This document shows, piece after piece, positions 15,684 to 61,560 of a stretch of 64,000 nt of DNA. The stretch comes from an uncultured Candidatus Saccharibacteria bacterium. Its GTDB lineage: Bacteria; Patescibacteriota; Doudnabacteria; UBA920. Below the pieces are notes generated by a model. That model searched no databases. It was not told the DNA's origin and worked only from the letters and a program-made list of their open reading frames with translations. The stretch spans positions 2,006-66,005 of the forward strand of contig CAZYQT010000005.1 of the NCBI GenBank assembly GCA_964650255.1, read 5' to 3'. A program made the position numbers and the translations under genes. How positions within the stretch are numbered: position 1 is the stretch's first letter; every line of letters starts with the position of its first letter.

Positions 15684-15684
15684 T

Positions 15685-36659: not shown

Positions 36660-37802
36660 ATGTTTTTCAAAAAGAAAAAACCAAAAATCGATCCCAAGAT
36701 TCGCTTTCAAAATAGGCAATTTAATCAAAAATTACATCAAGCAAGGACCTATAAACGAACTGTTCGCGCCATTCCAGAAGGCGGCTTTCAGCGGTTTTTA
36801 ACAGCGATCGGATTGGGTAGTGCCTGGAAGCAAATTTTGGCCTTACTAATTTTGGGCGGACTGATTTATATAGTTTATATTCCCAATTTTTTGAGCATTC
36901 AGAAAATTATTATTACTGGCATGTCGCCTGATGACACTACAGCCACACAAAACGCCGTGGAAGAGGTTATTAAGAGTGCGCATTTTTTCGACCCTCAGCG
37001 TAATTTATTATTTTTAAGCAAGAGCAGAGTCAGTCAAGCTGTTATGCATGTGGCCGGGGTTGATCGAGTGAATAGCATCAAAAAAGATTTCAAAAACAAA
37101 ACTGTTACAATATCAATTACATCTAAGTATGAAAGATTCTTAGTGCGCGACTCTGAAAAAGTTTATGATGTTTATAATGATGGCACCACAAAAGGTATAG
37201 CCGGGGTGGATAGGACCTATTGGGAATCATTACAAAACCCTGGTATGGTTAAGATTGATTTGAAGGGTAAGGTAATGAATGCCGACAATAAGCAGTTCCT
37301 TTCACCGGAAACAGTTAAGTATATTTTGGAAGCAGAAGATCAAATGAAGGGAATCGTTGGTTCCAGTTTGGCATTTGTGCAAATTACTTTGCCGGAGGTT
37401 AAAAAGCCAAGTGGCGAATTTGAGGAGAGCCCAGTTCCAGAAGTTGAAAATGCTCAGCCTGAAAAAGTTTCCCTTGATGATAAAATGACCACGCAGCTAG
37501 AGCCAGAAAATGATGGCAAGCCCGCAGTGGACGTTATATTGCCAACTCCAGAACCGCTGATTGAAATTAATTTGCCCCTAAAGGCTGATGAGCTAGAATT
37601 TTACTTGCAAAAAGGCAGTGACTCAAAAACCCTTTTTAGGGTTTTGATTGACACAAAAGAAAGTCCGCATGACATGGTTCAGCGGTTGAATTTATTACTG
37701 TCCCAAACTGCCTCTGATCGGTATAATTTATTAGCTTATATTGATTTGCGAGTAAAAACCCGAGCGTTTGTGTGCTTGCTTGGAACTGTTTGTGATAAAT
37801 AA
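36660..37802 (+). CDS. ftsQ: FtsQ/DivIB-like cell division protein (TM plus POTRA)
   Basis: Basic N-terminus, one TM, then a POTRA-like IQKIIITGMSPDDTTATQNAVEE segment. Lies downstream of murF. Confidence 0.5.
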   Translation: MFFKKKKPKIDPKIRFQNRQFNQKLHQARTYKRTVRAIPEGGFQRFLTAIGLGSAWKQILALLILGGLIYIVYIPNFLSIQKIIITGMSPDDTTATQNAVEEVIKSAHFFDPQRNLLFLSKSRVSQAVMHVAGVDRVNSIKKDFKNKTVTISITSKYERFLVRDSEKVYDVYNDGTTKGIAGVDRTYWESLQNPGMVKIDLKGKVMNADNKQFLSPETVKYILEAEDQMKGIVGSSLAFVQITLPEVKKPSGEFEESPVPEVENAQPEKVSLDDKMTTQLEPENDGKPAVDVILPTPEPLIEINLPLKADELEFYLQKGSDSKTLFRVLIDTKESPHDMVQRLNLLLSQTASDRYNLLAYIDLRVKTRAFVCLLGTVCDK

Positions 37803-37822
37803 AAAGCCGCGTAAGCGGCTTT
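37803..37822. terminator. Bidirectional hairpin terminator
   Basis: AAAGCCGC-gtaa-GCGGCTTT with an A-run before and T/A after. It separates the convergent ftsQ-like and GT-C genes. Confidence 0.5.
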
Positions 37823-37835
37823 AAAATGCATGTGG

Positions 37836-39440
37836 TTAGTTTACTTTATATTCTGTTACGTAAACCCATGTTCCCACATAGGGTCTGACTTCAGCAAAAC
37901 TTTTTTGAACTACTTCAGTCCAGTTTTTTGGTGTAGTGGGTTTGCTGCCGCCGAAGCCGTTGGTCCACAATAGCCACACAGTGTCGCCGTGTCGTGTTGA
38001 ATCGGAAAAATTAAGGACTAGATCATCATCAGTGAGGATGGCAGTGCCAGCATAGTGAGGTAGGTCATGTGTGAGGTGGCCATCAGTAAAAAGTAGCGGC
38101 TTCACAGAAGTTTCGTTGTAGTATTTGTAGTTGAAAAATTCAAAACTACTACCCACATAAATTTTATGTTGCGGTTCAACATTGGCGGTAAGGTATGCGC
38201 TGGCTGCGGCCATTCCCGGTTTAGTTTCTAATTGGAGCTTATCCCAATAATTCCAAACTGAGTAAAGATTTAGTAAAACCAGAACCAGGCTAAGTAAAGT
38301 AGCTAGTTGTTTGATTTTAAATTTACTTAGGAATAACGCCACTAAAATAGAATAGTACGCGCTGCAGAATATGAAATAGCGCACTAAATAGACTGAGCTG
38401 TTGTTGCCTTGGAGTTTGGCAATTATATAAAAGAGGATTGCGCCGCCGAACGGAGCTAGGAATGCCAGTATCGCCAGCCATTTTTCGGTTTCTTGCAACT
38501 TACGAATTACTTGAACAATAATTAGTAAGGTTAACATGGTGACAAATATCCAAAGAGGATTTGGGATTTGCCAGGATCCAATTAGCGGAAGTTTGGTTAT
38601 AGAATTGGGTAATCGAATGAGTAATTCCCATAATGTTGATGGAATACTCCATTCATCCATTGGCGGGATCCAATATCCAGCGCCGACTTGCTTGAATTGG
38701 AACAAAAAGACTTTCAACCAAGGAATAAATAGTATACCAATTCCCAGACCCGACAGCACCATCCAGCCGTATCGTTTAAATTCACCTTTGAAGTTAATAA
38801 TGCAATAAATGATTGCGTATATTCCTAGGGCTGCAACAGTGAACAACAAATAATAGTGAGTGTAAGTTAGAATGGCACTACACAATGTGAAGACCGCATA
38901 GTAAATTAGGAATCGTTTTTTTAACTTTGTCTTCAGTACTATATTGGTTTTACTGGCGTAGTAAGCAGTTTGATTGCGCAGAGCAGCACATAGAGCTAAT
39001 GCGGCAATCACTGCAAAGAACGCACCCATGGTGTACATGCGGGCTTCAGTGACATACTGCACTTGAAAAGGATTCACTGCAACGAACAGCGCAGCCCACA
39101 AAGCGGCACCTCGGTTGTTAAAGGCATATTTTACTAGATAATAAACGCCAATGACTGTGCCAACTCCGAAAAGCACGGACATGCCTCGCAGTGAAAACAA
39201 AGAGTTGCCAAAAATATAAGACCAAATACGCAAGAAAATATAATACATTGGTGGATGAACATCCAAACCAATTCGGTGCATCATTTCGCCCCATGGGTAT
39301 TTAATCAGCAACGCAGAAAAAGCTTCATCGTGCCAAAGCGATATTGAAGTCAAATGCCACAAACGCAGTACGAGTCCTAGGGCAGCGATGCAAATTAAAG
39401 CGAAATTGGTGCTAACTAGACTTTTGGCTTTTTGAATCAT
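37836..39440 (-). CDS. GT-C family glycosyltransferase (PMT/ArnT-like, GT39/GT83), 534 aa
   Basis: First-loop DE motif (LWHDEAFSA), ~12 TM helices and a C-terminal soluble domain. Confidence 0.7.
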   Translation of the reverse strand: MIQKAKSLVSTNFALICIAALGLVLRLWHLTSISLWHDEAFSALLIKYPWGEMMHRIGLDVHPPMYYIFLRIWSYIFGNSLFSLRGMSVLFGVGTVIGVYYLVKYAFNNRGAALWAALFVAVNPFQVQYVTEARMYTMGAFFAVIAALALCAALRNQTAYYASKTNIVLKTKLKKRFLIYYAVFTLCSAILTYTHYYLLFTVAALGIYAIIYCIINFKGEFKRYGWMVLSGLGIGILFIPWLKVFLFQFKQVGAGYWIPPMDEWSIPSTLWELLIRLPNSITKLPLIGSWQIPNPLWIFVTMLTLLIIVQVIRKLQETEKWLAILAFLAPFGGAILFYIIAKLQGNNSSVYLVRYFIFCSAYYSILVALFLSKFKIKQLATLLSLVLVLLNLYSVWNYWDKLQLETKPGMAAASAYLTANVEPQHKIYVGSSFEFFNYKYYNETSVKPLLFTDGHLTHDLPHYAGTAILTDDDLVLNFSDSTRHGDTVWLLWTNGFGGSKPTTPKNWTEVVQKSFAEVRPYVGTWVYVTEYKVN

Positions 39441-39442
39441 AA

Positions 39443-41107
39443 TTATTGAACTGTGTATACAGCTAATACTGCTTGGTTAAATTTATTACGCCGTTCTAAA
39501 GTTAGTTTGGCTTCAGGGTGATACTGTTTGAATTTTTTAATATCAAAAATACTAGATTGCGTGAACACGAGCCGGTCTCCTGGCTTGAGATTCTTGAGTT
39601 CCCATGAGTTTTCGGGATCCACCTGTTGGTATGGGTTGCCTTTATCGCTTGTAAAATAATCCACGGTTTGAACAGAGAACTTATCAAGTATAAGGAAAGT
39701 ATTATTTTTGTTGCCCGTGTTGTTTAGATAATCACTGACATTGGTTAAGTCAGACCGGAACGAGTAGAAGTTTTCTGGGCTATTAGCAGCAAAAATAAAG
39801 TAGAGGATGTAGGTTTGTAAGATGAGTGCCGCAATAAATACAATCGTCTTTGCATGAAAGGCAAAAGATAGTAGATTTTTTTGCCACCCCTGAAGATAAG
39901 GCCAGTACTTATTCACCACCCGCGAAGTCCATTCGACAACCCACATTAAACCCACGCTGGACATAATAAATACTACTGGGATAGTACCAATCGCACGCAA
40001 GCCGTGAGGGATACCTTCGGCAGTGGTGATTACAGGGATGAGCATGGCCCAAAACCACCCAGCGAGCAAAAAGTATTTCCAGTCGAGTTTATTTTTTATT
40101 GGAGTGAAGACATACCGGGCCGCTAGGGCAGTGGCGCCGATCAAACCCAAGGCAAAAAATGGAGCAATAATAATAGATAGGAATGCTTCACCAGAAATGT
40201 TGTGGCGCCAATTTAGATCGCCTCCCCAGAAGTAGGCGCGCATACTAGTCCAGAACACTTCACCTAATGTGCCTATTAGATTGCCGTGGTTAAGCGCAGG
40301 GCTAAATACGGATACTTGTCCGCTGCGACCAATAAACGATCCGGCATGTGTCCAGAAGTAATAAGCTATCCATGAGATAAAGACTAAAAAGCTGGCAATT
40401 AGGCCAATAAATGGTCCGAAAAACTTTTTAATATTTTGGAAGCGCGGAGACTTAATGATATCAACAGCCAATGGCCACAAAATTGCAACAGCAACAAGCG
40501 GTACCATTATCCTGTAGGCAATGTAGGTATAAAAACCTAGAGCAAAGGTTGCACCGGTAAGCACCGCCCACATGTAACGTTTGGCTTTGGTGGCGGCTTG
40601 AAAAGCCATTAGGCCAAAAAAGAAAGTGAATGTAGTAAATAAAGGAATTAAATTGGCGCGAAAAGCTGTGCGAGACAAGACTACATGCCAACTCGAAACC
40701 GCCATAAAGAATGATGCCCAAAGGGCAAGATTAGTTGCGCGACTAGTAATGGCATTGGGTTTGTCTCCATCGCGACTGCGGCCAAAGATTTTAAACAAAG
40801 CTCGAGCAACTAAGAAACAACCCAGCACCGCAATTACACCAACTAGAGCTGAAACAATATGATGCTGCCACGGACCTTTGCCAAACAGCTCCACACTGCC
40901 CCATAGCATGTAAAAGAACAAAGCCTCTCGGCCATTGCCGCGCTCGTAAAATGGTTGCAACTGTCCTTGTTGCATCAAGTTAATATCAAGGCCATTAGCG
41001 GCTTCGTCTGGAAACAATCCGCCAGGCATCGCCATAATCTGGTAATACCTAAAGAAGATTGCCAGGGCCATTATGCCGACTAGGAGCCATTTTTGTTTTG
41101 GTGTCAT
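39443..41107 (-). CDS. GT-C family glycosyltransferase (PMT/ArnT-like), second tandem copy
   Basis: GGLFPDEAANG motif, 12 or more TM helices. The track start at 41263 adds a non-hydrophobic extension. I prefer MTPKQKW (41107) or MNSW (41143). Confidence 0.65.
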   Translation of the reverse strand: MTPKQKWLLVGIMALAIFFRYYQIMAMPGGLFPDEAANGLDINLMQQGQLQPFYERGNGREALFFYMLWGSVELFGKGPWQHHIVSALVGVIAVLGCFLVARALFKIFGRSRDGDKPNAITSRATNLALWASFFMAVSSWHVVLSRTAFRANLIPLFTTFTFFFGLMAFQAATKAKRYMWAVLTGATFALGFYTYIAYRIMVPLVAVAILWPLAVDIIKSPRFQNIKKFFGPFIGLIASFLVFISWIAYYFWTHAGSFIGRSGQVSVFSPALNHGNLIGTLGEVFWTSMRAYFWGGDLNWRHNISGEAFLSIIIAPFFALGLIGATALAARYVFTPIKNKLDWKYFLLAGWFWAMLIPVITTAEGIPHGLRAIGTIPVVFIMSSVGLMWVVEWTSRVVNKYWPYLQGWQKNLLSFAFHAKTIVFIAALILQTYILYFIFAANSPENFYSFRSDLTNVSDYLNNTGNKNNTFLILDKFSVQTVDYFTSDKGNPYQQVDPENSWELKNLKPGDRLVFTQSSIFDIKKFKQYHPEAKLTLERRNKFNQAVLAVYTVQ

Positions 41108-41141
41108 ATTTGGTATAATTGGTACTGCTAACCAAGAATTC

Positions 41142-41471
41142 ATGCCATACGATAAGCACACACAAAAAGCCTGGGGCATTGCAATTGTCCTTTTTATTAT
41201 AACACTGGTTGCTGTGTATTTCAAAATGCGCAACGCTCCAGACACTGTAGCTTTACGATACAATATTATCGTTGGCGTTAATCAGATCGGGAGTAAGTAC
41301 GAGTTGTTAAAAATTCCTGCCACTGGCTTGTTAATCGGCATTGTTAATTACTTACTCATTCGATTGCAGAAATTTGATAAATCATTTTTGCCATTTTTGG
41401 CAGCTTTGACCACAGTCATGGTTAATGCCTTTTTACTCATCGCAGTTTTATTTTTATTCCGCGTTAGCTAA
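41142..41471 (+). CDS. Hypothetical small membrane protein
   Basis: Three TM helices. A plus-strand TGgTATAAT at 41111-41119 supports a divergent transcript running into the GT2 gene at 41481. The start is uncertain. Confidence 0.35.
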   Translation: MPYDKHTQKAWGIAIVLFIITLVAVYFKMRNAPDTVALRYNIIVGVNQIGSKYELLKIPATGLLIGIVNYLLIRLQKFDKSFLPFLAALTTVMVNAFLLIAVLFLFRVS

Positions 41472-41480
41472 AGTTTTAAT

Positions 41481-43157
41481 ATGTTCCGCACTCGCACACG
41501 CAGAGAACGATTTTGGGAAATTTTACCTGGCCTTTCCTTTTGGACGGTTTTTTTGGGTTCTATAGTCTTGTCTTTCGTTAAACCAGTTTGGGCAGCGGTG
41601 TTTATTGTTTGTTTTGATTTGTACTGGCTACTAAAGGCTATGAACACTTCGATTCATTTAATTTCGAGCTATCGCAAATTTCGAGTGTACGTAAAAATTG
41701 ATTGGCTTTATTTGATTAGCAAGCTGCAAAATCGGTCTGAATTAATTGAGCATATGGAAGAACTCGGGGTCAAGGCCGTCAAGTCGCTAGAAAAAAGGTT
41801 TTATAAAACCGAGGTAGAGAAGCTGCGCACAATGCCAGATAATGGCGTAATTAAGCGCCCATATACAGACTTCGTGCATTTAATATTAGTACCGTTTGTG
41901 GATGAATCCGAGGAAGTTCTTACATCAACTATCGGAGCTTTGGCCAGTGCTCAGTACCCCCATGATCGAATGATTGTTGTTTTGGCTTCGGAAGAACGGG
42001 CTGGGGCAGAGGCACAAAAAGTTGGCCAAGCCATGCTTGCAAAGTTTAAAGATAAATTTGCACACATGTTTTTAACTGTGCATCCAGATGGCTTGGAGGG
42101 GGAAATAAAAGGGAAGAGCGCCAATGCCAGTTATGCGGTTTCTTCGTTGCTGCCAAAGTTAGAAGAACTTGGCATTGCAGAAGAAGAGGTATTAATTTCT
42201 AATTTAGACAGCGATACTATTGTGCACCCGCAGTACTTTGCGCGCGTGATGTATGCGTTTTTAACTTCTGAAAAACCATACCGCCGTAGTTACCAGCCAA
42301 TTGCGATTTACAATAATAATATTTGGGATAGCCCAGCATTTATTCGCGTGGTGTCCATTTCGAATTCGTTTTGGCAGTTTACTGAAAGTTCCCGACCCGA
42401 CAGGCTTCGCACGTTCGCTTCGCATACAATGACCCTTAAGGCCCTGCGTGAGGTTGGGTTCTGGAAAAAAGATATCATCAATGAAGATGGATTTATTTAT
42501 TGGCAGTGTTACTTGCACTATAAAGGTGATTACGAAGTGGTCCCGTTGTTTATTCCGGTTTCGCTAGATACTTGTCTGGCTGACACTTTTTGGCAAACGC
42601 TGATTAATCAATACAAACAGAAAAAGCGTTGGGCATACAATGTGGAATATTATCCGCATTTGGTGCCAGCCATGTTAAAGAGTAAAGCGCCATTTTGGGA
42701 TCGGATGTATAAGTTGTGGCAATACGTTGAAGGTGATTTTAACTGGGCTACGGCTAGTTTGTTGATTACGGTTTTGGGTTGGCTTCCTTTGTTTATTGGC
42801 GGGCCGGAGTTTAAGGAAACAGTGATTGCTTATAACTTACCGCATGCTACCCGCACTCTAATGACGATTGCAACAGGATTTTTAATTTTCAGTGTGTACA
42901 TCAATTTAATTTTATTGCCACCGCGGCCAAAGAAATACAGTGTGTGGCGTAGTGTGATGATGTATTTGCAGTGGGTACTGGTGCCGATTGTTTCTGTGGT
43001 GTTCGGAAGTTTGCCAGCCATTGAAGCGCAAACTAGATTGATGATGGGTTGGTATTTAGAATTCTTCGTAACGCCAAAGGCCCGCAAAGGCGAAGTAACA
43101 GCTTCTACAATGCGCGAAATGCAAGCCGCAGAAAGCTCAGCAGGAGGGCAAAAATGA
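41481..43157 (+). CDS. Membrane glycosyltransferase family 2, processive-type (cellulose/chitin/hyaluronan-synthase-like)
   Basis: DxD (NLDSDT), Q(Q/R)xRW-like (QKKRW) and multiple C-terminal TM helices. Confidence 0.7.
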   Translation: MFRTRTRRERFWEILPGLSFWTVFLGSIVLSFVKPVWAAVFIVCFDLYWLLKAMNTSIHLISSYRKFRVYVKIDWLYLISKLQNRSELIEHMEELGVKAVKSLEKRFYKTEVEKLRTMPDNGVIKRPYTDFVHLILVPFVDESEEVLTSTIGALASAQYPHDRMIVVLASEERAGAEAQKVGQAMLAKFKDKFAHMFLTVHPDGLEGEIKGKSANASYAVSSLLPKLEELGIAEEEVLISNLDSDTIVHPQYFARVMYAFLTSEKPYRRSYQPIAIYNNNIWDSPAFIRVVSISNSFWQFTESSRPDRLRTFASHTMTLKALREVGFWKKDIINEDGFIYWQCYLHYKGDYEVVPLFIPVSLDTCLADTFWQTLINQYKQKKRWAYNVEYYPHLVPAMLKSKAPFWDRMYKLWQYVEGDFNWATASLLITVLGWLPLFIGGPEFKETVIAYNLPHATRTLMTIATGFLIFSVYINLILLPPRPKKYSVWRSVMMYLQWVLVPIVSVVFGSLPAIEAQTRLMMGWYLEFFVTPKARKGEVTASTMREMQAAESSAGGQK

Positions 43158-44212
43158 GCTACTTCGGCTTCGGCTTGTTCGCGTTTATAATGGCGGTGTT
43201 AATTACGCCAATCGTACGTTTTTTGGCGGAGCGAGTCGGGGCAGTTGATGTGCCTAGGCCGCCGCGTAATTTGCATACTCACACAGTTGCTAAGCTGGGT
43301 GGTTTGGCAATCTTTCTGAGTGTGGCTCTTGGTATGTTACTTTATGTGCACGCTGGAGCAATTGATCCTCTCATTGTGCCGTTTCGATTTGTATGGGCTT
43401 TGCTCTTGGGTGGGGCAGTGTTAATGGTCGGTGGTTTTTTAGATGACAAATACGAACTTCCGCCTTACATCTTGTGGATTTTTCCAACCATCTCTGCGTT
43501 GATAGTTGTTTTTTCTGGAATTGGAGTTGGAATTAAATTTATTAGCAACCCATTTGGCGCGCCGATTAATTTAGACTTCGCTTTACTTGGTGTGCCTGCA
43601 TCTGGTATTTTTATTTTTTTGTGGATGCTGGGCATGATGTTTACCACAAAATTTTTGGATGGTTTGGATGGACTTGTAGCTGGCATTGGTCTAATCGCTG
43701 GTCTGACTTTGTTTGCTCTGTCGTTAACCGATAGTGTGCAGCAACCAATTACTGCGAGTCTAGCAATTATTTTGGTTGGGGCGTTGGCTGGTTATTTAGT
43801 GTATGCGTTTCATCCAGCATCAATATTTCTCGGTGAGGGCGGCAGCACTTTAATTGGTTTTATTTTGGGAGTGCTCTCAGTAATTTTGGGCGGGAAGATT
43901 GCCACGGCTTTGCTGGTTATGGGGATTCCAATTTTAGATGTCGCTTGGGTAATTTTACAAAGACTGTGGTCGCGAAAAAGTCCGTTTCGTGGCGATCGAT
44001 TGCACATTCATTTTAAAATGATAGATTTAGGATTTTCCCAAAGACAGATTGCGTTGCTGCTATATGCACTGTCTGCAGGATTTGGTTTTACAGCGGTGTT
44101 TTTGCAAAGCATGGGTAAGCTTGTGGCCTTGGGAATTCTCTTTGCTATTATGGGCGTAATGGTATTGGGAGTGTTGTATGCGTACAAACGGAAACAATCC
44201 ATTAACGATTGA
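43154..44212 (+). CDS. Polyprenyl-phosphate N-acetylhexosamine-1-phosphate transferase (WecA/MraY family)
   Basis: Ten or eleven TM helices, DDxxE (GGFLDDKYELP) and DGLDGL motifs. The start overlaps the upstream stop (ATGA). Confidence 0.8.
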   Translation: MSYFGFGLFAFIMAVLITPIVRFLAERVGAVDVPRPPRNLHTHTVAKLGGLAIFLSVALGMLLYVHAGAIDPLIVPFRFVWALLLGGAVLMVGGFLDDKYELPPYILWIFPTISALIVVFSGIGVGIKFISNPFGAPINLDFALLGVPASGIFIFLWMLGMMFTTKFLDGLDGLVAGIGLIAGLTLFALSLTDSVQQPITASLAIILVGALAGYLVYAFHPASIFLGEGGSTLIGFILGVLSVILGGKIATALLVMGIPILDVAWVILQRLWSRKSPFRGDRLHIHFKMIDLGFSQRQIALLLYALSAGFGFTAVFLQSMGKLVALGILFAIMGVMVLGVLYAYKRKQSIND

Positions 44213-45199: not shown

Positions 45200-45886
45200 A
45201 TGTCAGTTGACACAGTTACGGAATGGCAGCGATGGCTTAGGCAGCAGCGCGAAAAAGGGAATATGCGTTTGTTCGATCATAATCTGAATCTGGAGCTGAA
45301 CGCTTCCGATGATGATGACGGCCGATCCAAATGGGGCGTCGGTAATTCTGATTACACAGGTCATCAGGCCTATCGACGCGATGATTCAGGTTTTTTCGAG
45401 GTCGAGTATGTCCAAGTTACTACTGACGGCAGAGAGGTCGGCGGCTGGTTCCAACCTTTAATCCGAGATTTGCCAGAAGGCGGAATCGCGGTTTTGGGAA
45501 GAGATAACGACTCTGAGCTCTTTTTGGTCAGTATCCGCGAGGAGCCCGGCAATCCGCCAGATAAAAATTATATTCTTTTAGGGCCATCTGCTCAGATGAG
45601 TTTGTCCAATGCTCGAAAAGATCACGGCGGTAACGCGCCGCCGCGGCACGAACTGATCAAAACCGCAATTTTGTTTGATCAGGTTCAGGACGGAGGACGT
45701 TTTAGGAACAAGGTCAATCAGATCGGGTTCACGGTGATCCCCTCGATACGGGATATAACGCTCAGTGATAAGGAGAGAATTTTCACCCGGGCAGAGTTGG
45801 TCGAGGCTATTCGTGCAGGGGAGTGCAACTCTCACCTCGTCGAGATCTTCTCGCGCGTTTCCGCTGACCTGCTACGTCTTCAATAA
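45200..45886 (+). CDS. Hypothetical protein (228 aa), GC-rich. Tentatively an NDP-hexose 2,3-dehydratase-like (EvaA/TylX3 family) single Nudix-fold domain.
   Basis: Own promoter, SD and terminator, and higher GC than its neighbours. Motifs RDDSGFFEVEYV, WFQPLI, GIAVLGR, EPGNPPDK and LGPSAQMSLSNARKDHGG recall (from memory, unverified) the 2,3-dehydratase half-domain. Confidence 0.5.
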   Translation: MSVDTVTEWQRWLRQQREKGNMRLFDHNLNLELNASDDDDGRSKWGVGNSDYTGHQAYRRDDSGFFEVEYVQVTTDGREVGGWFQPLIRDLPEGGIAVLGRDNDSELFLVSIREEPGNPPDKNYILLGPSAQMSLSNARKDHGGNAPPRHELIKTAILFDQVQDGGRFRNKVNQIGFTVIPSIRDITLSDKERIFTRAELVEAIRAGECNSHLVEIFSRVSADLLRLQ

Positions 45887-48391: not shown

Positions 48392-49150
48392 TTAAACTCC
48401 AAAAGTAGTTTGAGTACTGACTGGTTTTGGCTTGTTTGCTTGTTCACGCCTCCAGACATTTGCCTCATGATAAGATTCTATTGTACCAGCGTCAATCCAG
48501 GCCCCTTTCATAATCTCAGCTTTTAAGATGCCCTTTTCGCGGTACCAGTTATTTAAATCAGTAATTTCTAGTTCACCGCGAGCAGATGGTCTTTGTCCCT
48601 TAGCTGCCCCAACAACCTGATTGTCGTAAATGTAGATTCCAGTTTGGGCATACGGTGATTTGGGATGCATAGGTTTTTCTTCAATATCCAAAACTTTATT
48701 ATCTTTGTCTAAGATTACGTTACCCAATCGACTGCGCTCCTCGACCGGCACTTCTTTTACAAAAATTGTTGCCCCAGATTGAAAGTTTGTAATTGCATCG
48801 GTAATGGAATCTTCAAAAATATTATCACCTAAAATAAGAGTGACGTTATCGCCATCGTCCAAAAAGTTTTCGCCTATAATAAAGGCTTGCGCCAGGCCAT
48901 CAGGCTTGTCCTGAATTTCATAGGTAAATTTTGCACCAAAATCTTTACCAGAGCCTAATACGCGCATGTAGTCGCCGCAATGATCCGGAGCAACAATAAT
49001 TAAAATTTCTCTAACGCCGGCTTCGACCAATTTTTCAATTGGATAGAAGATCATTGGCTTATCATAAATTGGCAACAACTGCTTCGATGTTACCTTGGTT
49101 AGGGGATATAGCCTTGTTCCTAAGCCTCCGGAAAGAATGATGCCTTTCAT
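48392..49150 (-). CDS. rmlA: Glucose-1-phosphate thymidylyltransferase, short form
   Basis: GGLGTRLYPLT nucleotide-binding motif and RmlA-like core. 252 aa. Confidence 0.85.
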   Translation of the reverse strand: MKGIILSGGLGTRLYPLTKVTSKQLLPIYDKPMIFYPIEKLVEAGVREILIIVAPDHCGDYMRVLGSGKDFGAKFTYEIQDKPDGLAQAFIIGENFLDDGDNVTLILGDNIFEDSITDAITNFQSGATIFVKEVPVEERSRLGNVILDKDNKVLDIEEKPMHPKSPYAQTGIYIYDNQVVGAAKGQRPSARGELEITDLNNWYREKGILKAEIMKGAWIDAGTIESYHEANVWRREQANKPKPVSTQTTFGV

Positions 49151-49157
49151 TTATGTA

Positions 49158-50066
49158 TTATTTCACTAGACTTAATTTGTAATCTGTTTCTTGTTGCGTT
49201 TCTTCAAGAATTTCTTGGGCACGTTCGAGATTGGCCTTGAATTCTGGGAGTAGGCGACGCAATCGGGATTCGATTTCTTCCAACTCAATACCGAGCGCTT
49301 TTAATTTTGATGTATTTAGCACGCAGTCAACGCGCGTGGCAAGAGTCATGGCATTCAACTCATCTTTGGAGATTATGCTAATTTCCATATCGGGTTTTAC
49401 CAATTCTTTTAACAGCTGTGCCAAGCGGAATGGGGTCATAATTCCTGGGTTAGTAATATTGTAGAGTCCTTCTGCTCGAAGACCAATTAATTTATCCGTT
49501 ACTTCTATTAAGTCTTCAACAATCGTCATCGAATTAGCTGTATCAATGAATTTGTTGTAGGTTAAAAGCTTTGTTAAAGCATTTCGTTTATTTGCTTTGG
49601 CACTCATAAGCTGTCGGCCGCGAAGTAGGAGTACTTTTAGCCCTTGGCGTGCAGCGCGTTCCATAAGCAAATTTTCTGCCCAGACTTTTGTCCAAGAGTA
49701 AAAGGCCAAAGGATGAGCTGGGTCATCCTCAGTGTGGACAATATCTGCTGACTGACTTTCTTGCACGCAGCCGCTTGAGAGGTGCACTAGATAAACACCT
49801 GCTTCTTGGCAAGCTCGCCCAATTGTATCAGAGCCTAAAGTATTAACATCGAAGCACTCTAATTGATTCTGCTCACACCAGTCCAAGTTGGTTTTACCAG
49901 CGCAATTAATGACAACGTCTGGTTGAAAGTCTGCAATGGCGCTACTAACTTGATCAAAATTGCGTATGTCCACGTCTTGATCGATGGCCACTTCCTCACC
50001 TTTTTCTAGGTAGTATTCTTCATAGGCTTGGCCAAGTTGCCCTCGGCCGAATATTAGTACTTTCAT
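49158..50066 (-). CDS. rmlD: dTDP-4-dehydrorhamnose reductase-like (RmlD family SDR / 4-ketoreductase)
   Basis: Rossmann N-terminus (KVLIFGRGQLG) and YxxxK (YSWTK). RmlD-like length. Confidence 0.7.
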   Translation of the reverse strand: MKVLIFGRGQLGQAYEEYYLEKGEEVAIDQDVDIRNFDQVSSAIADFQPDVVINCAGKTNLDWCEQNQLECFDVNTLGSDTIGRACQEAGVYLVHLSSGCVQESQSADIVHTEDDPAHPLAFYSWTKVWAENLLMERAARQGLKVLLLRGRQLMSAKANKRNALTKLLTYNKFIDTANSMTIVEDLIEVTDKLIGLRAEGLYNITNPGIMTPFRLAQLLKELVKPDMEISIISKDELNAMTLATRVDCVLNTSKLKALGIELEEIESRLRRLLPEFKANLERAQEILEETQQETDYKLSLVK

Positions 50067-50092
50067 ATTTTTGTAGTTAATTTGTTGATGGG

Positions 50093-51109
50093 TTATTTTT
50101 TGTTCACTACTGCTTCGCCTCGCTTGGCGTACAGTGCCTCACTTTCTTCAGCCAGTGCCTGCCAAATGTGTTGGTTGGCAATATACCATTCAATAGTTTG
50201 TTTTAGCCATTCTTCAAAGTTATGCAATGGCTCCCAACCGAGTTCGTTTTTTATTACACTCCAGTCAACGTCATACTTTTGATCATGTCCAGGCCGGTCA
50301 GTTACATATTCAATGCGACTCTCTGGCAAGTCCATTAGTTTTAAAATTAATTTGGCAACATCTTCATTTTTAATTCCTTCAGTCATCCCGCCAACAGTGT
50401 AAGTTCGGCCTGGCTCACCTTTCAATAGAATTAATTCAATTGCTCGGCAATGATCATTAACATGTAACCAATCACGAACTTGATTGCCTGGTGTATAAAC
50501 GCGAATGTTGTTGCCGTTCAGAAGGCGGGCGATAGAGCGCGGGATAAACTTTTCTGGATACATCCGCGGACCAAAGTTATTACTGGCATTACTGATGGTA
50601 ACCGGTAAGCCATAAGTTTTGTGGTAAGCTCTCACCATGTGATCACTTCCGGCTTTGCTGGCCGAATAGGGGCTATTGGGTTTGTAGGTTGTATCCGCGG
50701 TAAACTTCCAATCTTCTTCTAAAGGGATATGGCCGAAAACTTCATCAGTAGAAATATGGTGGAATCTTTTTATGCCCAGTTCGCGAGCCACTTCTAACAA
50801 CACATGAGTTCCTAATACGTTTGTGCGGGTAAAAAGAAATGGATCATGAATGCTTCGGTCGACATGGCTTTCTGCGGCGAAGTGTACTACGCAATCGCAG
50901 CCGGACATGGCTCGGCGAACAACGTCTGGATCTGTAATATCACCTTCAATAAAAGTGATGGAGTCGTTGTGTGGGTCAAGGTTAGCTCTGTTGCCAGCAT
51001 AAGTAAGTTTGTCTAAAACAACGATTTCGTCGTTGGGATAGTGTTTGCGCCAGTGATGCACAAAATTAGAGCCAATAAAGCCGGCACCGCCAGTAATCAG
51101 TAATTTCAT
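50093..51109 (-). CDS. rmlB: dTDP-glucose 4,6-dehydratase
   Basis: TGGAGFIGSN, catalytic YSASK and RmlB-like overall sequence. Confidence 0.9.
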   Translation of the reverse strand: MKLLITGGAGFIGSNFVHHWRKHYPNDEIVVLDKLTYAGNRANLDPHNDSITFIEGDITDPDVVRRAMSGCDCVVHFAAESHVDRSIHDPFLFTRTNVLGTHVLLEVARELGIKRFHHISTDEVFGHIPLEEDWKFTADTTYKPNSPYSASKAGSDHMVRAYHKTYGLPVTISNASNNFGPRMYPEKFIPRSIARLLNGNNIRVYTPGNQVRDWLHVNDHCRAIELILLKGEPGRTYTVGGMTEGIKNEDVAKLILKLMDLPESRIEYVTDRPGHDQKYDVDWSVIKNELGWEPLHNFEEWLKQTIEWYIANQHIWQALAEESEALYAKRGEAVVNKK

Positions 51110-54123: not shown

Positions 54124-54861
54124 ATGAAAAAATTATCTGTGGTAATTCCGGCCTACAATGAGGAAAAACGGATTACCGCCACCCTTAAGAGCGTTGATCA
54201 TTATCTCGAAAAGCAAAAGTACGACTATGAGATAATCGTTATCGACAATAATAGTAAGGATCGTACCAGCGAAGTCGTTAAAAAGTTAGAAGCAACTACT
54301 GTGCAAAAGTCTTCGGTGGTCTTGGTAAAAAATCCCGGCAAGGGCGCAGCGGTAAAAGCTGGCCTCCTGGAATCTGCCAAGGGCGACATTGTTATGTTTA
54401 TGGACGCAGATAATGCTACCCCAATTTCGGAAATCGAAAAGTTTTTGCCTTACTTCGATCAAGGCTACGACGTAGTAATTGGATCACGCTATACGAACCC
54501 GGATTTGGTTAAAGTTCACCAGCCCCTCTATAGAATTATTTTGTCTCGTATGAGTAACTTACTGATTCAGTTTTTGGCCGTACCAGGGATTAAAGATACC
54601 CAGCTTGGCTTTAAAGCTTTCACAGCAAAAGCAGCAAAAGATATTTTCCCTTTTGTGACTGTGCCTCGGTGGGGTTTTGATATGGAAGTACTTACTGTTG
54701 CCAATGCTCGTGGCTACAAAATTAAAGAAGTCGGTGTGTCTTGGACAGAGCATGGCGGCGGGCACGTGCCTTTAAAAGCTTATATTGAATCTCTTATAGA
54801 TTTATTAAAAATAAAAGTTCGTTCAATGTCGGGTCGTTACACTGCGAAACGACCAGCCTAA
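54124..54861 (+). CDS. Polyprenol-phosphate glycosyltransferase (GT2; Dpm1/GtrB/ArnC-like)
   Basis: LSVVIPAYNEEKRI...IIVIDNNSKDRT...FMDADNATP...QLGFKAF, a typical DPM1-like sequence. TTGCTATACT lies upstream at 54090-54099. Confidence 0.8.
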   Translation: MKKLSVVIPAYNEEKRITATLKSVDHYLEKQKYDYEIIVIDNNSKDRTSEVVKKLEATTVQKSSVVLVKNPGKGAAVKAGLLESAKGDIVMFMDADNATPISEIEKFLPYFDQGYDVVIGSRYTNPDLVKVHQPLYRIILSRMSNLLIQFLAVPGIKDTQLGFKAFTAKAAKDIFPFVTVPRWGFDMEVLTVANARGYKIKEVGVSWTEHGGGHVPLKAYIESLIDLLKIKVRSMSGRYTAKRPA

Positions 54862-54876
54862 TCTATTCATCAACAA

Positions 54877-56760
54877 ATGTTAAAACTAAAACTAAAATTA
54901 TTGGTATGTGTTTTAACTGCCACTTCCATTGTCGGAAGTGGGTTTTTTGCTATGCCTGCCAAAGCTGCAGACAAACAAGTTGCAGCTGTACGCCATGATT
55001 TCGTAATCAAATTAAAATCATCCGACGCTCAAATCCTAAAAGCCTTACCAGGCATTACCAATATTCAGCCGGTATTCATTAATGCCCAAAGTGATATCCT
55101 TTCTAATACCTATACTTTTAGTTCAACATCTTCACTAGAAGTTCTGCGCCAAACCTTCGAAGGGTTGTACCAATATCTGGACGCCAACGATCCCATAACA
55201 GATTCTGCAATCAAAACTTCTGGCAAAGCCAAAAAGGTATTACCTAACGACCCATTTTTTACCCAGAATGCTGTTAATGTAGATAAGCAGTGGGGATTGG
55301 TAAAAGCAAATTTTATCACTGCCTGGGAAACGAGCCTGGGGAAGCGCAGCACTGTAGTAGCGGTGATTGATACGGGCATTGATGGTACGCACGAAGATTT
55401 CGAGCACACTAAGTTTGTTGGCGGGTACAACACTATCACCAAAAAAACTCTTGTTGCTGGTGGGAACTCAGACGATAACGGCCACGGTACACTAATAGCA
55501 GGAGTAATTGCCGCTTCGACAGATAACAAAACTGGTATTGCTGGTGCGGCCTCCGGTGTTTCTTTAATGGCGGTTAAAGCTTTAAATTCTAGTGGCAGCG
55601 GCAGTTCATCAAAAATTTCTGAAGCTATTGTTTGGGCCGCCGACCATAATGCCGATGTAATTAATCTTTCTTTGGGTGGTATTGGATTTGGTCACGATAC
55701 TGTGTTAGCAAGTGCCATCACTTATGCCTTTAATAAAAATGTTGTGATTGTTGCAGCGGCTGGCAATGATGTTGCTATTACTGGAGGGAACCTCGATAAA
55801 GATCCAGTGTTTCCGATTTGTGATGATAATGGTCAGAACATGGTGATTGGTGTAACTGCCACAGACAGCAATGACCTCAAGCCATCGTTTGCTAATTACG
55901 GAAAGGCTTGTGTAGATGTTTCCGCTCCAGGCAAGCGCATTTTGTCCACTGTTAACCATGATCCAACTACAGGCCGCGAAGCCCCCGATGCTTACGCTTA
56001 CGCCTCTGGTACATCACTAGCAGTGCCGTTTGTAAGTGCTCAGGCGGGATTGCTTCGTTCAGTATTTCCAAGGGCCACTAATCGACAGATTAGAGACCGT
56101 ATTATCGGCACTGCAGACAGTATCGATGCTCTTAATTTAAGCCAGTGTGGTGACCAGTCTTGCGCTGGTTATCTAGGCGGGGGTCGTATTAATGCTGCAA
56201 AGAGTTTAGAGGCAAAGTTTGCGGATCTTGCTGATGGTGATGTCATTCAGGTTAAAGGAACATCAGAATATTTCTATATTAATGGCGGTAAGAGACAGCC
56301 GATCAGCCCCTTTGTTAAAGGACAGCGATTTGCAAGTGCGAAAATAAAAATAGTTCCACTTTCAGAGTTAGAGGATTTTCCAGAGGGGTCATATGCAGAG
56401 CCGTTAGACGGTACACTGGTGAAGAGTCCAAATGAAGGCGCTGTCTATTATATGCAAGATGGTTTGCGCCGACCATTAACAGCGCAGGTTTTTTCTATGC
56501 GTGGATTTAAGTTTTCCGATATTGTTACTTTGACCAACGTTGAGGTTGGGTCGTGGATTGAAGGTAGTTTCTTAGCCCCTCCAGATGGAACGATCGTTCG
56601 AGGCAAAACCAACCCAACTATTTATTGGACAGTCAACGGAATCATTCATCCGATCAACTATGAATTTTTCGTCAACCGTGGATTGAACGCGCTGCCTATT
56701 ATTTATTTTCCAGATGGTGATGTTGCTAAATTTCCACATGGCGACCCATATGTTTTGTAA
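54877..56760 (+). CDS. Secreted subtilisin-like serine peptidase (S8) with C-terminal ~57 aa repeats
   Basis: Asp (VAVIDTGID), His (HGTLIAG) and Ser (GTSLAVPFV) catalytic motifs, a signal peptide, and three C-terminal repeats (...YFYINGGKRQPISPFVKGQRF...). Confidence 0.85.
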   Translation: MLKLKLKLLVCVLTATSIVGSGFFAMPAKAADKQVAAVRHDFVIKLKSSDAQILKALPGITNIQPVFINAQSDILSNTYTFSSTSSLEVLRQTFEGLYQYLDANDPITDSAIKTSGKAKKVLPNDPFFTQNAVNVDKQWGLVKANFITAWETSLGKRSTVVAVIDTGIDGTHEDFEHTKFVGGYNTITKKTLVAGGNSDDNGHGTLIAGVIAASTDNKTGIAGAASGVSLMAVKALNSSGSGSSSKISEAIVWAADHNADVINLSLGGIGFGHDTVLASAITYAFNKNVVIVAAAGNDVAITGGNLDKDPVFPICDDNGQNMVIGVTATDSNDLKPSFANYGKACVDVSAPGKRILSTVNHDPTTGREAPDAYAYASGTSLAVPFVSAQAGLLRSVFPRATNRQIRDRIIGTADSIDALNLSQCGDQSCAGYLGGGRINAAKSLEAKFADLADGDVIQVKGTSEYFYINGGKRQPISPFVKGQRFASAKIKIVPLSELEDFPEGSYAEPLDGTLVKSPNEGAVYYMQDGLRRPLTAQVFSMRGFKFSDIVTLTNVEVGSWIEGSFLAPPDGTIVRGKTNPTIYWTVNGIIHPINYEFFVNRGLNALPIIYFPDGDVAKFPHGDPYVL

Positions 56761-56853: not shown

Positions 56854-58740
56854 ATGAAGAAACACAAATCATTTTTAATTTACAGTTTAATTATCGGGGG
56901 TTTATTTTTTTCCTCCTTATCTAACCCCGCTGCAGTTTTAGCTGCTGAGCCAGTTCAGTCTGGATTCAACCCTAACAAACTTATTGATGATAAGGTTTTT
57001 TCCAATTCCAAAACTATGACTGCTTCTGATATTCAGAAGTTTCTAGATAGCAAAAACAGTGTTTTAGCAAACACCAGCGATTCATTTATATCCCAATTGA
57101 AGGAACCAGTTAGCAATCAAACTTTAAAGGAAACTTTGGAAGATCCAGGCGCATCATCAACCTCACCAAGGACTGCGGCGCAGTTAATTTTTGATGCTGC
57201 TAAATCTAGCGGCTTAAACCCGCAAGTTATTTTAGTCACTCTTAACAAAGAACAAAGTTTAATTACTGGGCGTCAGAATGCAACTCCAGAACAACTCCAG
57301 CGCGCCTTAGATTTTGCTATGGGTTTTGGCTGTCCAGACAGTCAACCTTGCGGCGACATCTATCGCGGTTTTTATTTTCAACTCTTTGGTGGAGTTGATG
57401 CAGAAAATAATCGTTACTTAGGTGCTGCAAAATCTTTGATGAAATCATTTGAAACCCCAGGCGGTCGTGGCCCTTGGTATAATGGTGCGACCTCAAAAGT
57501 TGGAGACACTATTACTTTGGGTAATACAGTTGGAAATTACGAAGGGGTTGAGGCAAATCAGACGGTCACTCTTTCAAACGCGGCCACTGCTGCGCTTTAC
57601 CGCTACACCCCACATGTTTTTAATGGGAATTATAATTTTTGGCGATTCTTTAAGCTGTGGTTTGGCGGTAAGTCCAGCGACTCAGGCAGTAGTGTGAACG
57701 GTTTGGTTAAAACCTCCTCGACTGGTGATGTGTATGTGGTGGAGAATAATACTCGGTACAAGGTTTTGCCATTCGTGGCCAAGGCCAACGATCTAAAAGT
57801 ATCCAAGGCAAAAAAAGTTAGCAAAAGCACGTTCAATAAATATTCTGATGGCGGCCTCTACCCAGTTCCAGATAATACTTTAATTAAAGTTGGCACTAAA
57901 TATTATTTGTTTTTAGCCAACCAGAAGCGACCAATTAGTGAAGAGAATATTAAGAGCCGTGGTTTAAAAATTGCTGATGCAATTGATGCTAACAGTTCTG
58001 ATGCTGATAAATACACAACCGGCGAACAAATTGCTATTACAGACGGCGCGGTTCTAAAGGGCACGTCCAGGCCAGATGTTTATTTGCTAACCAATGGCAA
58101 ACTCAAGCTATTTACATACGCTACTTTCCAGCAGTACGGAGCAGCAGCGAACATGCTCACTGTGGCCGACACTGTGATTGATGGTTATGCGAAAGATGGT
58201 TTAGTTTTGCCTAAGTCAGGGAGTTTGGTAAAGAGTTTTAACTCTGCAACTGTTTATTTTTACGAAGATGGTCAGAAAAAACCGATGGACGGAGAGATTT
58301 TCCGTAATCGCGGCTTTTCATTGAGCAATGTTTACGAACTCACTCAGGCGGAAATCGACGCCTTGCCGTTAGGACCATTCCCTTTGCCAGCCAACAATAC
58401 ATTTTTTGAGGACAAGAAAACCCATCAATTGTATTGGTACACCGATGGTAAGAAACGATCAATTTCGTCTTTTGTAGCCAAGCAAAAAAACATTACTCCA
58501 GATTTCAGTTTCGGTGAAGACACCATCAAAAATTTACCAGACGGAACTCCAGTGCTGCCAAAAGAAGGCACAGTGTTTAAGAGTGACAAAAAAGCAGACG
58601 TTTATATTATTAGTTCAAGTGTAGCTCGGCCTTTGTCTGCAGCTGCGTTTACAGCACGAGGTATTACTCCTGCTCAAGTTAATATTTTACCTCAGGCAGA
58701 AGTAGATAGCTATCCAAAAGGTTCGCTTTTGACACAATAA
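56854..58740 (+). CDS. Secreted repeat protein (628 aa) sharing the ~57 aa repeat with the S8 peptidase
   Basis: Signal peptide and an N-terminal domain of unknown function (possibly glycan-hydrolase-like). Six C-terminal repeats of consensus dGtlvK...vY.i..g.kRPi....f..rGf. Confidence 0.6.
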   Translation: MKKHKSFLIYSLIIGGLFFSSLSNPAAVLAAEPVQSGFNPNKLIDDKVFSNSKTMTASDIQKFLDSKNSVLANTSDSFISQLKEPVSNQTLKETLEDPGASSTSPRTAAQLIFDAAKSSGLNPQVILVTLNKEQSLITGRQNATPEQLQRALDFAMGFGCPDSQPCGDIYRGFYFQLFGGVDAENNRYLGAAKSLMKSFETPGGRGPWYNGATSKVGDTITLGNTVGNYEGVEANQTVTLSNAATAALYRYTPHVFNGNYNFWRFFKLWFGGKSSDSGSSVNGLVKTSSTGDVYVVENNTRYKVLPFVAKANDLKVSKAKKVSKSTFNKYSDGGLYPVPDNTLIKVGTKYYLFLANQKRPISEENIKSRGLKIADAIDANSSDADKYTTGEQIAITDGAVLKGTSRPDVYLLTNGKLKLFTYATFQQYGAAANMLTVADTVIDGYAKDGLVLPKSGSLVKSFNSATVYFYEDGQKKPMDGEIFRNRGFSLSNVYELTQAEIDALPLGPFPLPANNTFFEDKKTHQLYWYTDGKKRSISSFVAKQKNITPDFSFGEDTIKNLPDGTPVLPKEGTVFKSDKKADVYIISSSVARPLSAAAFTARGITPAQVNILPQAEVDSYPKGSLLTQ

Positions 58741-61500: not shown

Positions 61501-61560
61501 TTTAAATTCACCAATTAGTAACATATTAACACAGCATGGTTTCCGTGATACAATTATGGC

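Follow-up and report, generated by a model that had tools for sequence, protein, structure and literature searches.

Known systems of glycan assembly offer several points of reference for the locus described here. In BcsA and CesA the FxVTxK motif forms a gating loop that contacts UDP and is required for activity, and hyaluronan and chitin synthases carry WGTR/KG in its place (PMC10592267; PMC6821405). In the synthase-dependent O-antigen route, the WbbF synthase elongates and translocates a glycan linked to undecaprenyl phosphate (Und-P) (PMC2841628), and in systems of Gtr/Arn-type logic a lipid-linked donor is made inside the cell and transferred outside (PMC11127046). The locus in question is a cluster of five genes at positions 37836 to 44212 of a 64,000-nucleotide stretch of DNA (contig CAZYQT010000005.1), called the window below, from a Patescibacteria (candidate phyla radiation, CPR) genome of the Doudnabacteria group, homologues of which are named Candidatus Doudnabacteria or Patescibacteria group. 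Patescibacteria live by attachment to host cells, and we know of almost no experimental work on their cell envelope beyond peptidoglycan and pili. A search of the literature on CPR/Patescibacteria glycosyltransferases and envelope yielded no paper on the families treated here. The reading proposed for the cluster, to which a probability of roughly 45% is given, is that of two back-to-back modules for cell-envelope glycans: a lipid-primed synthase operon, and a separate operon for glycosyltransferases of the GT-C fold working on the outer face of the membrane. The five genes and the two signal-like sites next to them are the following:

37836-39440, minus strand: GT-C1, first GT-C protein, 534 amino acids (aa)
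39443-41107, minus strand: GT-C2, second GT-C protein, 554 aa from the ATG at 41107 (maximal open reading frame, ORF, 39443-41263)
41142-41471, plus strand: small membrane protein, 109 aa (maximal ORF 41073-41471)
41481-43157, plus strand: membrane glycosyltransferase of family 2 (GT2), 558 aa
43154-44212, plus strand: WecA-like enzyme (GT4), 352 aa (maximal ORF 43049-44212)
41196-41224, minus strand: promoter-like site of the sigma-70 type, TTGAAA, 17 nt, TG-TATAAT, 11 of 12 matches
37803-37822, minus strand: hairpin terminator-like site, 8-bp stem with five G-C pairs and a T-rich tail

All five ORFs, with the motifs and families that a first-pass annotation had read from the letters, were recovered at these positions. 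The maximal ORFs are too long at the 5' end for three of the genes: the small membrane protein and the WecA-like enzyme are likely to start at ATG 41142 and ATG 43154, respectively, and the true start of GT-C2 is probably the ATG at 41107 or that at 41071, the latter giving the 542-aa form on record (P0271). With the likely starts, 34 nt separate GT-C2 from the divergent small gene. On the plus strand, the small gene ends 9 nt ahead of the GT2 start, and the start codon of the WecA-like gene overlaps the GT2 stop codon (ATGA); on the minus strand, the GT-C2 stop lies 2 nt from the GT-C1 start. The GT-C operon has promoter-like and terminator-like sites of its own. The former is found about 90 nt upstream of the GT-C2 start, inside the small ORF on the opposite strand, and the latter directly past the GT-C1 stop, between GT-C1 and a convergent ORF (36660-37802).

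The most useful result is the GT2 family rather than the GT-C pair, given its size, its BcsA-type signature and its conservation in the clade at the level of seryl-tRNA synthetase (SerRS). With clustering at 50% identity, an exhaustive profile search returned 2204 clusters below E 1e-3, of which 404 were also below 1e-30, and a word-indexed search gave more than 1300 homologues, the best 120 being 67-91% identical. The window protein carries E142, K212-x-x-N215, D243-S-D245 (in NLDSDT), Q272-P, E335-D336, Q380-K-K-R-W384 and F528-F-V-T-P-K533, the full membrane-synthase signature, which bears out the processive type predicted in the first-pass annotation. Hydropathy indicates two N-terminal and about three to four C-terminal transmembrane (TM) helices. 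In a set of 53 diverse members (25-64% identity), near-invariant residues were E142, E171, H201, K212, N215, D243, D245, Q272, N280, W282, R289, D336, D363, Q380, R383 and W384. At least 90% of the members keep D243xD245, E/D335-D336, Q380xxR383W384 and also E142, which takes the place of the first acidic residue of the signature. Of the 53 members, 51 keep K533 and 51 keep F/Y528 of the FxVTxK motif, and the V is found in 39 of them and the T in 41. The motif lies about 148 residues past QxxRW in this family, and in E. coli BcsA the corresponding FNVTAK lies 124 residues past QRIRW. WGT[RK] was present in one of 116 representatives of the family.

Curated models described this family poorly. 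Pfam Glyco_trans_2_3 matched the window GT2 marginally (28.5 bits, cut-off 27), and the only NCBIfam model matched in the family was PgaC_IcaA, weakly and for 11 of the 53 members; the window protein scored 18.9 bits on the PgaC equivalog model, the cut-off of which is 422. The family profile matched no PDB sequence even at E<=1, and neither the GT-C1 nor the GT-C2 family profile matched any. Because the searches against PDB sequences gave nothing meaningful, the classification of GT2 and of the GT-C proteins relies on Pfam, hhalign and predicted structure. By hhalign, the GT2 family profile aligned with E. coli BcsA (96.7%, E 4e-10) and with E. coli PgaC (96.5%, E 7.8e-10, 319 columns including the C-terminal TM region), with the canonical motifs in register in both cases. 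The AlphaFold2 (AF2) model is of moderate quality (pLDDT 63.8, pTM 0.65; below 50 over much of residues 273-357 and 501-543), and its best Foldseek matches in the PDB were BcsA and hyaluronan synthases. No PilZ domain was matched in the GT2, which stops about 25 residues past FxVTxK, and no BcsB-like gene was seen in the window or in related loci. From its motif signature, it is concluded that the GT2 is a processive-type, membrane-embedded synthase whose signature comes nearest to that of the beta-glucan synthases. The family of which it is a member is large and has no curated description.

The GT2 is preceded by a small protein with three TM helices predicted from hydropathy and a conserved loop of the (P)LHYN-x3-G-x-D type after the first of them. 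Small partners of GT2 synthases are known from the pairs PgaC-PgaD and IcaA-IcaD; in E. coli, pgaD carries the annotation of a synthase subunit. The small gene stands upstream of GT2 in 37 Doudnabacteria loci, and in a Saccharibacteria genome (L127) it overlaps the GT2 start, with neither GT4 nor GT-C nearby. The protein is a putative, and probably a dedicated, membrane partner of the GT2. It fits no curated family. Membership of GtrA, PgaD and DUF1648 was rejected: only the window copy gave a match, to DUF1648 and below threshold, and seven other members gave none.

The last gene of the operon had been annotated at first pass as an initiating transferase of the WecA family, and this could be confirmed. 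Its product, with about 10-11 TM helices, matched Pfam Glycos_transf_4 (PF00953) with 86.7 bits (cut-off 27), and its best NCBIfam match was WecA (91.8 bits), below the equivalog cut-off of 326. It showed 28% identity to E. coli WecA over 307 aa (E 4e-16). In this alignment FLGEGGSTLIGF of the window enzyme pairs with FMGDAGSTLIGF of E. coli WecA; the aligned motifs are LDDKYEL/LDDRFDI, FLDGLDGL/MVDGIDGL and DRLHIHF/DRQHIHH, and the catalytic DDxxD, DGxDGL, GxxGS and HIH motifs are in register. In FLGEGGS, the window enzyme has E for D of the F-x-G-D-x-G-S motif. A comparison with PDB sequences returned nothing meaningful for this protein, and identity as MraY was rejected (33.6 bits, cut-off 192). 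By sequence, the enzyme would be a polyprenyl-phosphate N-acetylhexosamine (HexNAc)-1-phosphate transferase of the WecA/TagO type in the PNPT superfamily, and not a strict WecA orthologue.

Taken as one module, the plus-strand operon of small protein, GT2 and WecA-like enzyme would form a lipid-primed, synthase-dependent glycan pathway. The WecA-like enzyme would make polyprenyl-PP-HexNAc on the cytoplasmic face. The BcsA-like GT2, probably aided by its small partner, would add beta-linked sugars from a UDP-sugar processively and thread the growing chain out through its own membrane channel. The elongation and translocation of an Und-P-linked glycan by WbbF serves as precedent for this step (PMC2841628). 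The data themselves show gene structures, families and folds, motifs, operon coupling, selection and linkage; from these we infer which substrates are used, that the WecA-like enzyme primes the synthase, what kind of product is made and any cross-talk with the GT-C module.

A GT2, a small membrane protein and GT-C enzymes together also recall the general layout of three-component systems of the Gtr/Arn/GacIJL type (PMC11127046; bioRxiv 10.1101/180810). Under such an arrangement the GT2 would make, and perhaps flip, a polyprenyl-phosphate sugar consumed by the GT-C enzymes, and the small protein, which is tightly coupled to GT2, would be a GacJ/GtrA-like activator or flippase. This is very improbable. 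The GT2 has a processive signature (QxxRW, ED, FxVTxK) and several TM helices, which is not the architecture of GtrB or ArnC; the small protein matches neither GtrA nor another flippase family; most members of the GT2 family are without a GT-C neighbour; and a separate, non-syntenic ArnC-like GT2 is encoded at 54124. The first-pass annotation had held polyprenol-dependent GT-C systems to be largely uncharacterised outside Actinobacteria, a view that is contradicted by the published descriptions of ArnT, Gtr, GacL, YfhO and the GT136 three-component systems (PMC11127046; bioRxiv 10.1101/180810).

The two large proteins of the minus strand had been called GT-C enzymes from their first-loop acidic motif, and further evidence agreed with this. 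GT-C1 carries SLWHDEAFSAL at residues 34-44, with an invariant W36-H-D38-E39-A-F in the first loop followed by DVHPPxYY, and GT-C2 carries GGLFPDEAANG, with P-G-G-L-F-P-D34-E35-A-A invariant. The acidic pair is invariant in 23 orthologues of GT-C1 (D38-E39) and in 25-40 orthologues of GT-C2 (D34-E35). GT-C1 scored above the cut-off on Pfam PMT_2 (36.3 bits, cut-off 26.1) and below it on Pfam PMT (PF02366; 21.9 bits, cut-off 22.7), with a weak match to Agl23 as well. GT-C2 scored 19.8 bits on PMT_2, under the cut-off, and gave no PF02366 match; many of its orthologues have precomputed matches to PF13231 (PMT_2) or, in a few cases, PF02366 (PMT), and they are named 'glycosyltransferase family 39 protein', 'phospholipid carrier-dependent glycosyltransferase' or 'ArnT-like'. 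Alignment of the two families by hhalign (95.7%, E 9.5e-9, over the N-terminal 290 residues, D-E motifs in register) identifies them, at the level of sequence profiles, as distant paralogues.

An AF2 model of GT-C2, built from 40 orthologues, was of good confidence (pLDDT 81.9, pTM 0.84), and the 14 best Foldseek matches of this model in the PDB were all GT-C enzymes. Yeast STT3 (E 3.9e-6), ArnT (7.5e-6) and AglB (8.5e-6) were followed by Pmt4, AftA, Pmt1/2 and AftB, with best TM-scores of 0.43-0.51. GT-C1 is tied to the same fold by its PMT_2 score above the cut-off and its paralogy with GT-C2, and both large proteins are GT-C enzymes at the level of fold and superfamily. Their predicted 13-TM topology had to be revised. 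Hydropathy gave about 10-12 hydrophobic segments in each protein, and together with the AF2 model this amounts to about 11 TM helices and a C-terminal soluble domain of about 110-140 aa: GT-C1 has about 10-11 helices and a domain of about 140 aa, and GT-C2 about 11 helices and, in the model, an alpha/beta domain of about 110 aa (residues 444-554).

ArnT/PMT_2-like proteins without assigned function are common in bacteria, and by the sequence comparisons made here neither GT-C family appears to fit a characterised subfamily. Orthology with ArnT was rejected (hhalign against E. coli ArnT 2.2% and 1.4%; no NCBIfam ArnT match), as was Emb/Aft, for which no arabinosyltransferase Pfam match was obtained and AftA and AftB appeared only as lower-ranked structural matches. 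The features of a protein mannosyltransferase (PMT) proper were likewise missing, PF02366 being below the cut-off or absent and PMT_4TMC and MIR unmatched.

By analogy with known GT-C enzymes, the pair would use polyprenyl-phosphate-sugar donors. In the proposed reading GT-C2 and GT-C1 make up a second module, whose products, possibly a heteromer or enzymes of consecutive steps, would move sugars from such donors on the outer face of the membrane. The donors could plausibly come from the ArnC/PgfS-like GT2 at 54124, and the acceptor could be the polymer of the synthase operon, another wall glycan or a protein. A protein acceptor leads to a different reading, in which the pair is a PMT-like protein O-glycosyltransferase heterodimer, as Pmt1-Pmt2, with no functional relation to the GT2/WecA operon; its targets would be secreted or surface proteins, for example pilins or enzymes bound to the wall. 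The loop-1 D-E motif, Pfam PMT_2 and PMT as the only family matches, the tandem and translationally coupled paralogues, Pmt4 and Pmt1-Pmt2 among the structural matches of GT-C2, and several secreted proteins encoded nearby are in keeping with it. It is nevertheless judged unlikely, as its positive support comes down to a Pfam name: the PF02366, MIR and PMT_4TMC results speak against it, STT3 and ArnT outscore the Pmt structures, and no Ser/Thr-rich extracytoplasmic acceptor stands out.

Close relatives were scanned with one genome per species, giving 43 loci. The order SerRS, MurF, membrane protein, GT-C1, GT-C2 and, divergently, small protein, GT2, GT4, ribosomal protein L21 was found in essentially all loci that were long enough. 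The five-gene arrangement recurs, with its head-to-head layout, in 32-37 species-level relatives, so that it is not a chance feature of one genome; absence or scattering of the locus in close relatives, which the first-pass annotation had named as evidence against a link, was not observed, and neither was the other outcome it had named, a placing of the two large proteins outside GT-C. In most relatives the start codons of the divergent operons are 24-70 nt apart. Median gaps across Doudnabacteria are about 4 nt between small gene and GT2, about 1 nt between GT2 and GT4 and about 5 nt between GT-C2 and GT-C1. Mean identity to the window over 21 loci was 73.0% for GT2, 68.7% for GT4, 62.2% for GT-C2 and 56.5% for GT-C1, compared with 72.5% for SerRS, 75.8% for L21 and 48.4% for MurF as controls, and the cluster enzymes are under strong purifying selection. 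The membrane protein of the block is the convergent ORF 36660-37802 (plus strand) mentioned above, a 380-aa single-pass protein after MurF, at a position where FtsQ might be expected. Neither Pfam nor NCBIfam gave a match for it, and with a mean identity of 38.9% it is conserved less than any other gene of the block.

Because SerRS, MurF and L21 are equally syntenic, adjacency within the clade says little about common function. This bears on the reading put forward at first pass, in which the five genes, with a Dpm1-like synthase and a UbiA protein, form a single pathway to one polyprenol-linked product, either a protein O-glycan or a lipoglycan/arabinogalactan-like polymer: WecA would initiate, GT2 elongate and the GT-C enzymes extend the chain outside. 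The claim had adjacency as its only basis. The conserved divergent layout, kept in the 32-37 genomes and mostly with the short distance between starts, favours it, and so does a crude measure of rate covariation, whose two top values were GT-C2/GT2 (0.70) and GT-C1/GT-C2 (0.58); controls, however, ranged from 0.1 to 0.48, with MurF and the FtsQ-like protein reaching 0.48. More distant loci were also unfavourable. From a 12-sequence alignment, 77 metagenomic loci were found whose GT2 is 37-42% identical to that of the window, and their flanks held no homologue of GT-C1 or GT-C2, only two unrelated large polytopic ORFs. The GT-C pair adjoins GT2 only in Doudnabacteria. As a whole, a single integrated pathway is considered rather unlikely; further points on it come from the neighbouring sugar genes below.

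In the distant loci, a small 3-TM ORF was present upstream of GT2 in 22 of 65 cases and a GT4-like gene with 10-11 TM helices downstream in 11 of 68. From these data the small protein and GT2 are the ancestral unit, which GT4 joins repeatedly as a third gene in one subfamily. The homologues (L047-L123) occur in a longer form of about 555-590 aa, usually with the small partner and often with GT4, and a shorter form of about 490-545 aa, mostly amid unrelated housekeeping genes, which suggests two GT2 subfamilies with different partner needs. The GT2 family was also seen in Micrococcales (Brevibacterium casei, B. epidermidis, B. litoralis, Leucobacter and Pseudoclavibacter). With the B. litoralis GT2 (P0193) as query, proteins named Saccharibacteria were 45-50% identical, and the B. 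casei gene, which has no small partner, GT4 or GT-C beside it, follows an AnmK/SSF/SIS/BadFG-type cluster and is itself followed by a PspC-domain gene. Actinobacteria serve as hosts to Saccharibacteria, which live on them as epibionts, and the GT2 of Micrococcales may stem from gene transfer between the two.

With so few distant GT2 loci having a WecA-like neighbour, the cluster could instead join three unrelated neighbours: an exopolysaccharide synthase (small protein and GT2), a WecA-like initiator for a downstream Wzx-dependent glycan, and an independent GT-C pair. The Wzx, RmlA/B/D-like and two further GT2 genes downstream fit this, as does the extension of clade synteny to housekeeping genes. 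This explanation is doubtful all the same, since in most Doudnabacteria the GT4 gene overlaps GT2 or directly adjoins it, and the same three-gene order (small protein, GT2, GT4) recurs in other lineages at 37-42% GT2 identity, which is hard to explain without shared function.

Several of these observations weigh against the two-module reading preferred here. Most distant GT2 homologues have no WecA-like neighbour, and the Brevibacterium homologue has neither partner; priming by a WecA-like enzyme therefore cannot be general in the GT2 family. In the window, the WecA-like enzyme could instead start a Wzx-dependent dTDP-sugar pathway encoded 1-16 kb downstream. The coupling of the GT-C genes to the synthase operon is limited to one clade in which housekeeping genes are equally syntenic, and rate covariation is weakly above that of the controls (0.70 against 0.1-0.48). 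The AF2 model of GT2 is only moderate, with its channel-forming C-terminal half poorly predicted, and the functions proposed for all these families rest on sequence and models.

The rest of the window (G+C about 42%) encodes a mix of housekeeping and envelope genes typical of Patescibacteria:

Housekeeping and envelope genes in the window: ClpB, GatA, GatB, MiaA, MreB, MreC, PBP2, FolD and GreA
Before the five-gene cluster: two class II aminoacyl-tRNA synthetases, MurF and the single-pass membrane protein without a family
After the cluster: L21, then RmlA, an RmlD-like gene, RmlB and a half-size NDP-hexose 2,3-dehydratase-like ORF
Further downstream: two cytoplasmic GT2 genes, a sortase, the ArnC/PgfS-like GT2 and a subtilase
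54124-54861, plus strand: ArnC/PgfS-like GT2, 245 aa, soluble
Distal end: a Wzx-type flippase, a cytidylyltransferase and a UbiA prenyltransferase
60601-61587: UbiA-family gene, matching generic or archaeal GGGP-type prenyltransferase models (74.9 bits)

The Dpm1-like synthase that the first-pass annotation had placed nearby is real and lies 10 kb beyond the cluster. In NCBIfam it comes closest to PgfS, ArnC, Dol-P-hexose transferase and PpgS, without reaching the cut-off of any, and its identity to E. coli ArnC is 31% (E 2e-22). It is a plausible candidate for the maker of a lipid-linked donor for the GT-C enzymes. It lies 13 kb from the GT-C genes and falls within 10 kb of the cluster in one (L017) of about 40 relatives, and this lack of synteny counts against a single integrated pathway. 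No flippase gene of the GtrA or ArnE/F (SMR) type was found near the cluster.

The UbiA gene noted at first pass also exists, with its end at 61587 rather than 61500, and the UbiA-DPPR link to an arabinan-type pathway found no specific support. The protein scored 21.9 bits on the decaprenyl-phosphate phosphoribosyltransferase (DPPR-synthase) model, which has a cut-off of 207, and is not DPPR-synthase-like, a further point against the integrated pathway; no DprE-like gene was seen in the window. Downstream of the Wzx-type flippase gene comes a small cytidylyl/adenylyltransferase gene, with which the UbiA gene converges (60169-61587). A CPR organism of this kind is quinone-less.

RmlA, RmlB and the RmlD-like gene, together with the further GT2 genes, make the region formally analogous to GlcNAc-Rha-linked wall polysaccharides of actinobacteria and streptococci, which is in favour of one integrated pathway. 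The dTDP-sugar genes lie at 45200-45886 and 48392-51109, and no RmlC-like epimerase was seen in the window. A 228-aa ORF matched only part of the NDP-hexose 2,3-dehydratase domain (68 bits). With this partial ORF present and no RmlC-like gene seen, the activated sugar may not be plain L-rhamnose.

Neither an LCP ligase nor an O-antigen ligase nor an acceptor protein was identified in the window, which again counts against a single integrated pathway. The suggestion from the first pass that neighbouring secreted proteins might hold Ser/Thr/Pro-rich acceptor regions was followed up, and the search gave nothing convincing. In the sortase, the Pro/Ser-rich segment lies ahead of the TM helix, probably in the cytoplasm. 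The C-terminus of the subtilase (54877-56760; residues about 450-627) shares a repeat of about 55 aa with the adjacent 628-aa secreted protein (56854-58740; residues about 280-628), as seen in several offset BLASTP alignments (E 6e-19). Pfam matched the subtilase with Peptidase_S8 alone (residues 157-415), outside the repeat region, and the 628-aa protein matched no Pfam or NCBIfam family. The repeat may be wall- or glycan-binding. Elsewhere in the window, a 541-aa ORF with about six hydrophobic helices (14058-15683, plus strand) lies between GatA (12544-14052) and GatB (15655-17208); it overlaps the start of GatB and gave no Pfam match.

All parts of the cluster are of known kinds, namely GT-C enzymes, a processive GT2 synthase and a PNPT enzyme, and from sequence the locus is a plausible combination of them. 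New are the large BcsA-like GT2 family with its dedicated small partner, sometimes operon-coupled to a WecA-like enzyme, and two divergent GT-C families. The GT2 and its partner are a concrete candidate for the synthesis of a surface beta-glycan in Patescibacteria, and Brevibacterium as well as Saccharibacteria that can be cultivated have orthologues of the GT2. Should the WecA-like enzyme prime and the GT-C pair finish the chain, the rare route of synthase-dependent, lipid-linked assembly would gain an example of Gram-positive type. A bolder extension would see in the small protein and GT2 a minimal cellulose-synthase-like machine, widespread in Patescibacteria, for an undescribed core envelope beta-glycan, WecA-primed and finished by a heteromeric GT-C pair in Doudnabacteria and certain other lineages, which would amount to a new wall-polymer pathway, with the actinobacterial copies derived from exchange with Saccharibacteria; this is speculative and regarded as quite unlikely.

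Compared with BcsA (and also CrdS, BgsA and plant CesA), the GT2 likewise has a homologous GT-A domain, with TM helices on both sides of the catalytic domain, and it shares with BcsA the motifs P-x-Y/V-x-E, K-x-x-N, DxD, ED, QxxRW and the C-terminal FxVTxK (PMC6821405; PMC10592267). It differs from BcsA in having no PilZ domain and no TM helix past the gating loop. Instead of a BcsB partner there is an upstream 3-TM protein of about 110-145 aa, and in some lineages the GT2 is operon-coupled to a WecA-like enzyme. The PgaC-PgaD and IcaA-IcaD systems likewise pair a membrane GT2 synthase with a small membrane partner; PgaC, however, is without the FxVTxK that marks the GT2 family, and PgaD, which has two TM helices and is encoded downstream, showed no detectable similarity to the 3-TM upstream partner found here.

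ArnT (GT83) with ArnC and ArnE/F, as well as Gtr, GacI/J/K/L, CsbB/GtcA/YfhO and GT136, share with this locus the GT-C fold, the acidic first-loop motif and an ArnC-like GT2, the last being present in the window. The ArnT structure 5f15 matched the GT-C2 model with a TM-score of about 0.45 (E 7.5e-6). Unlike these systems, the locus has two tandem GT-C paralogues in place of one, with no sequence-level relation to E. coli ArnT; no GtrA/ArnE/F-type flippase gene was found nearby, and the ArnC-like gene is not syntenic. The PMTs of family GT39 (Pmt1-Pmt2, Pmt4 and actinobacterial Pmt with Ppm1) have the same loop-1 D-E and about 11 TM helices, and the pair recalls the Pmt1-Pmt2 heterodimer. In contrast to them, the window pair lacks MIR and PMT_4TMC and has sub-threshold PF02366, and the GT-C2 model is structurally closer to STT3 and ArnT.

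The O-antigen route through WecA and WbbF follows the same logic as that proposed for the synthase operon, with a PNPT initiator and a processive membrane GT2 in charge of both elongation and export of an Und-P-linked glycan (PMC2841628). The present host has only one membrane, the likeness is drawn from the logic and not from the sequence of WbbF, and use of a lipid primer would be the inferred counterpart. For the initiating enzyme the closest known counterparts are E. coli WecA and Gram-positive TagO of the PNPT family; its catalytic motifs align with those of E. coli WecA, and the 10-11 or so TM helices are a shared feature.

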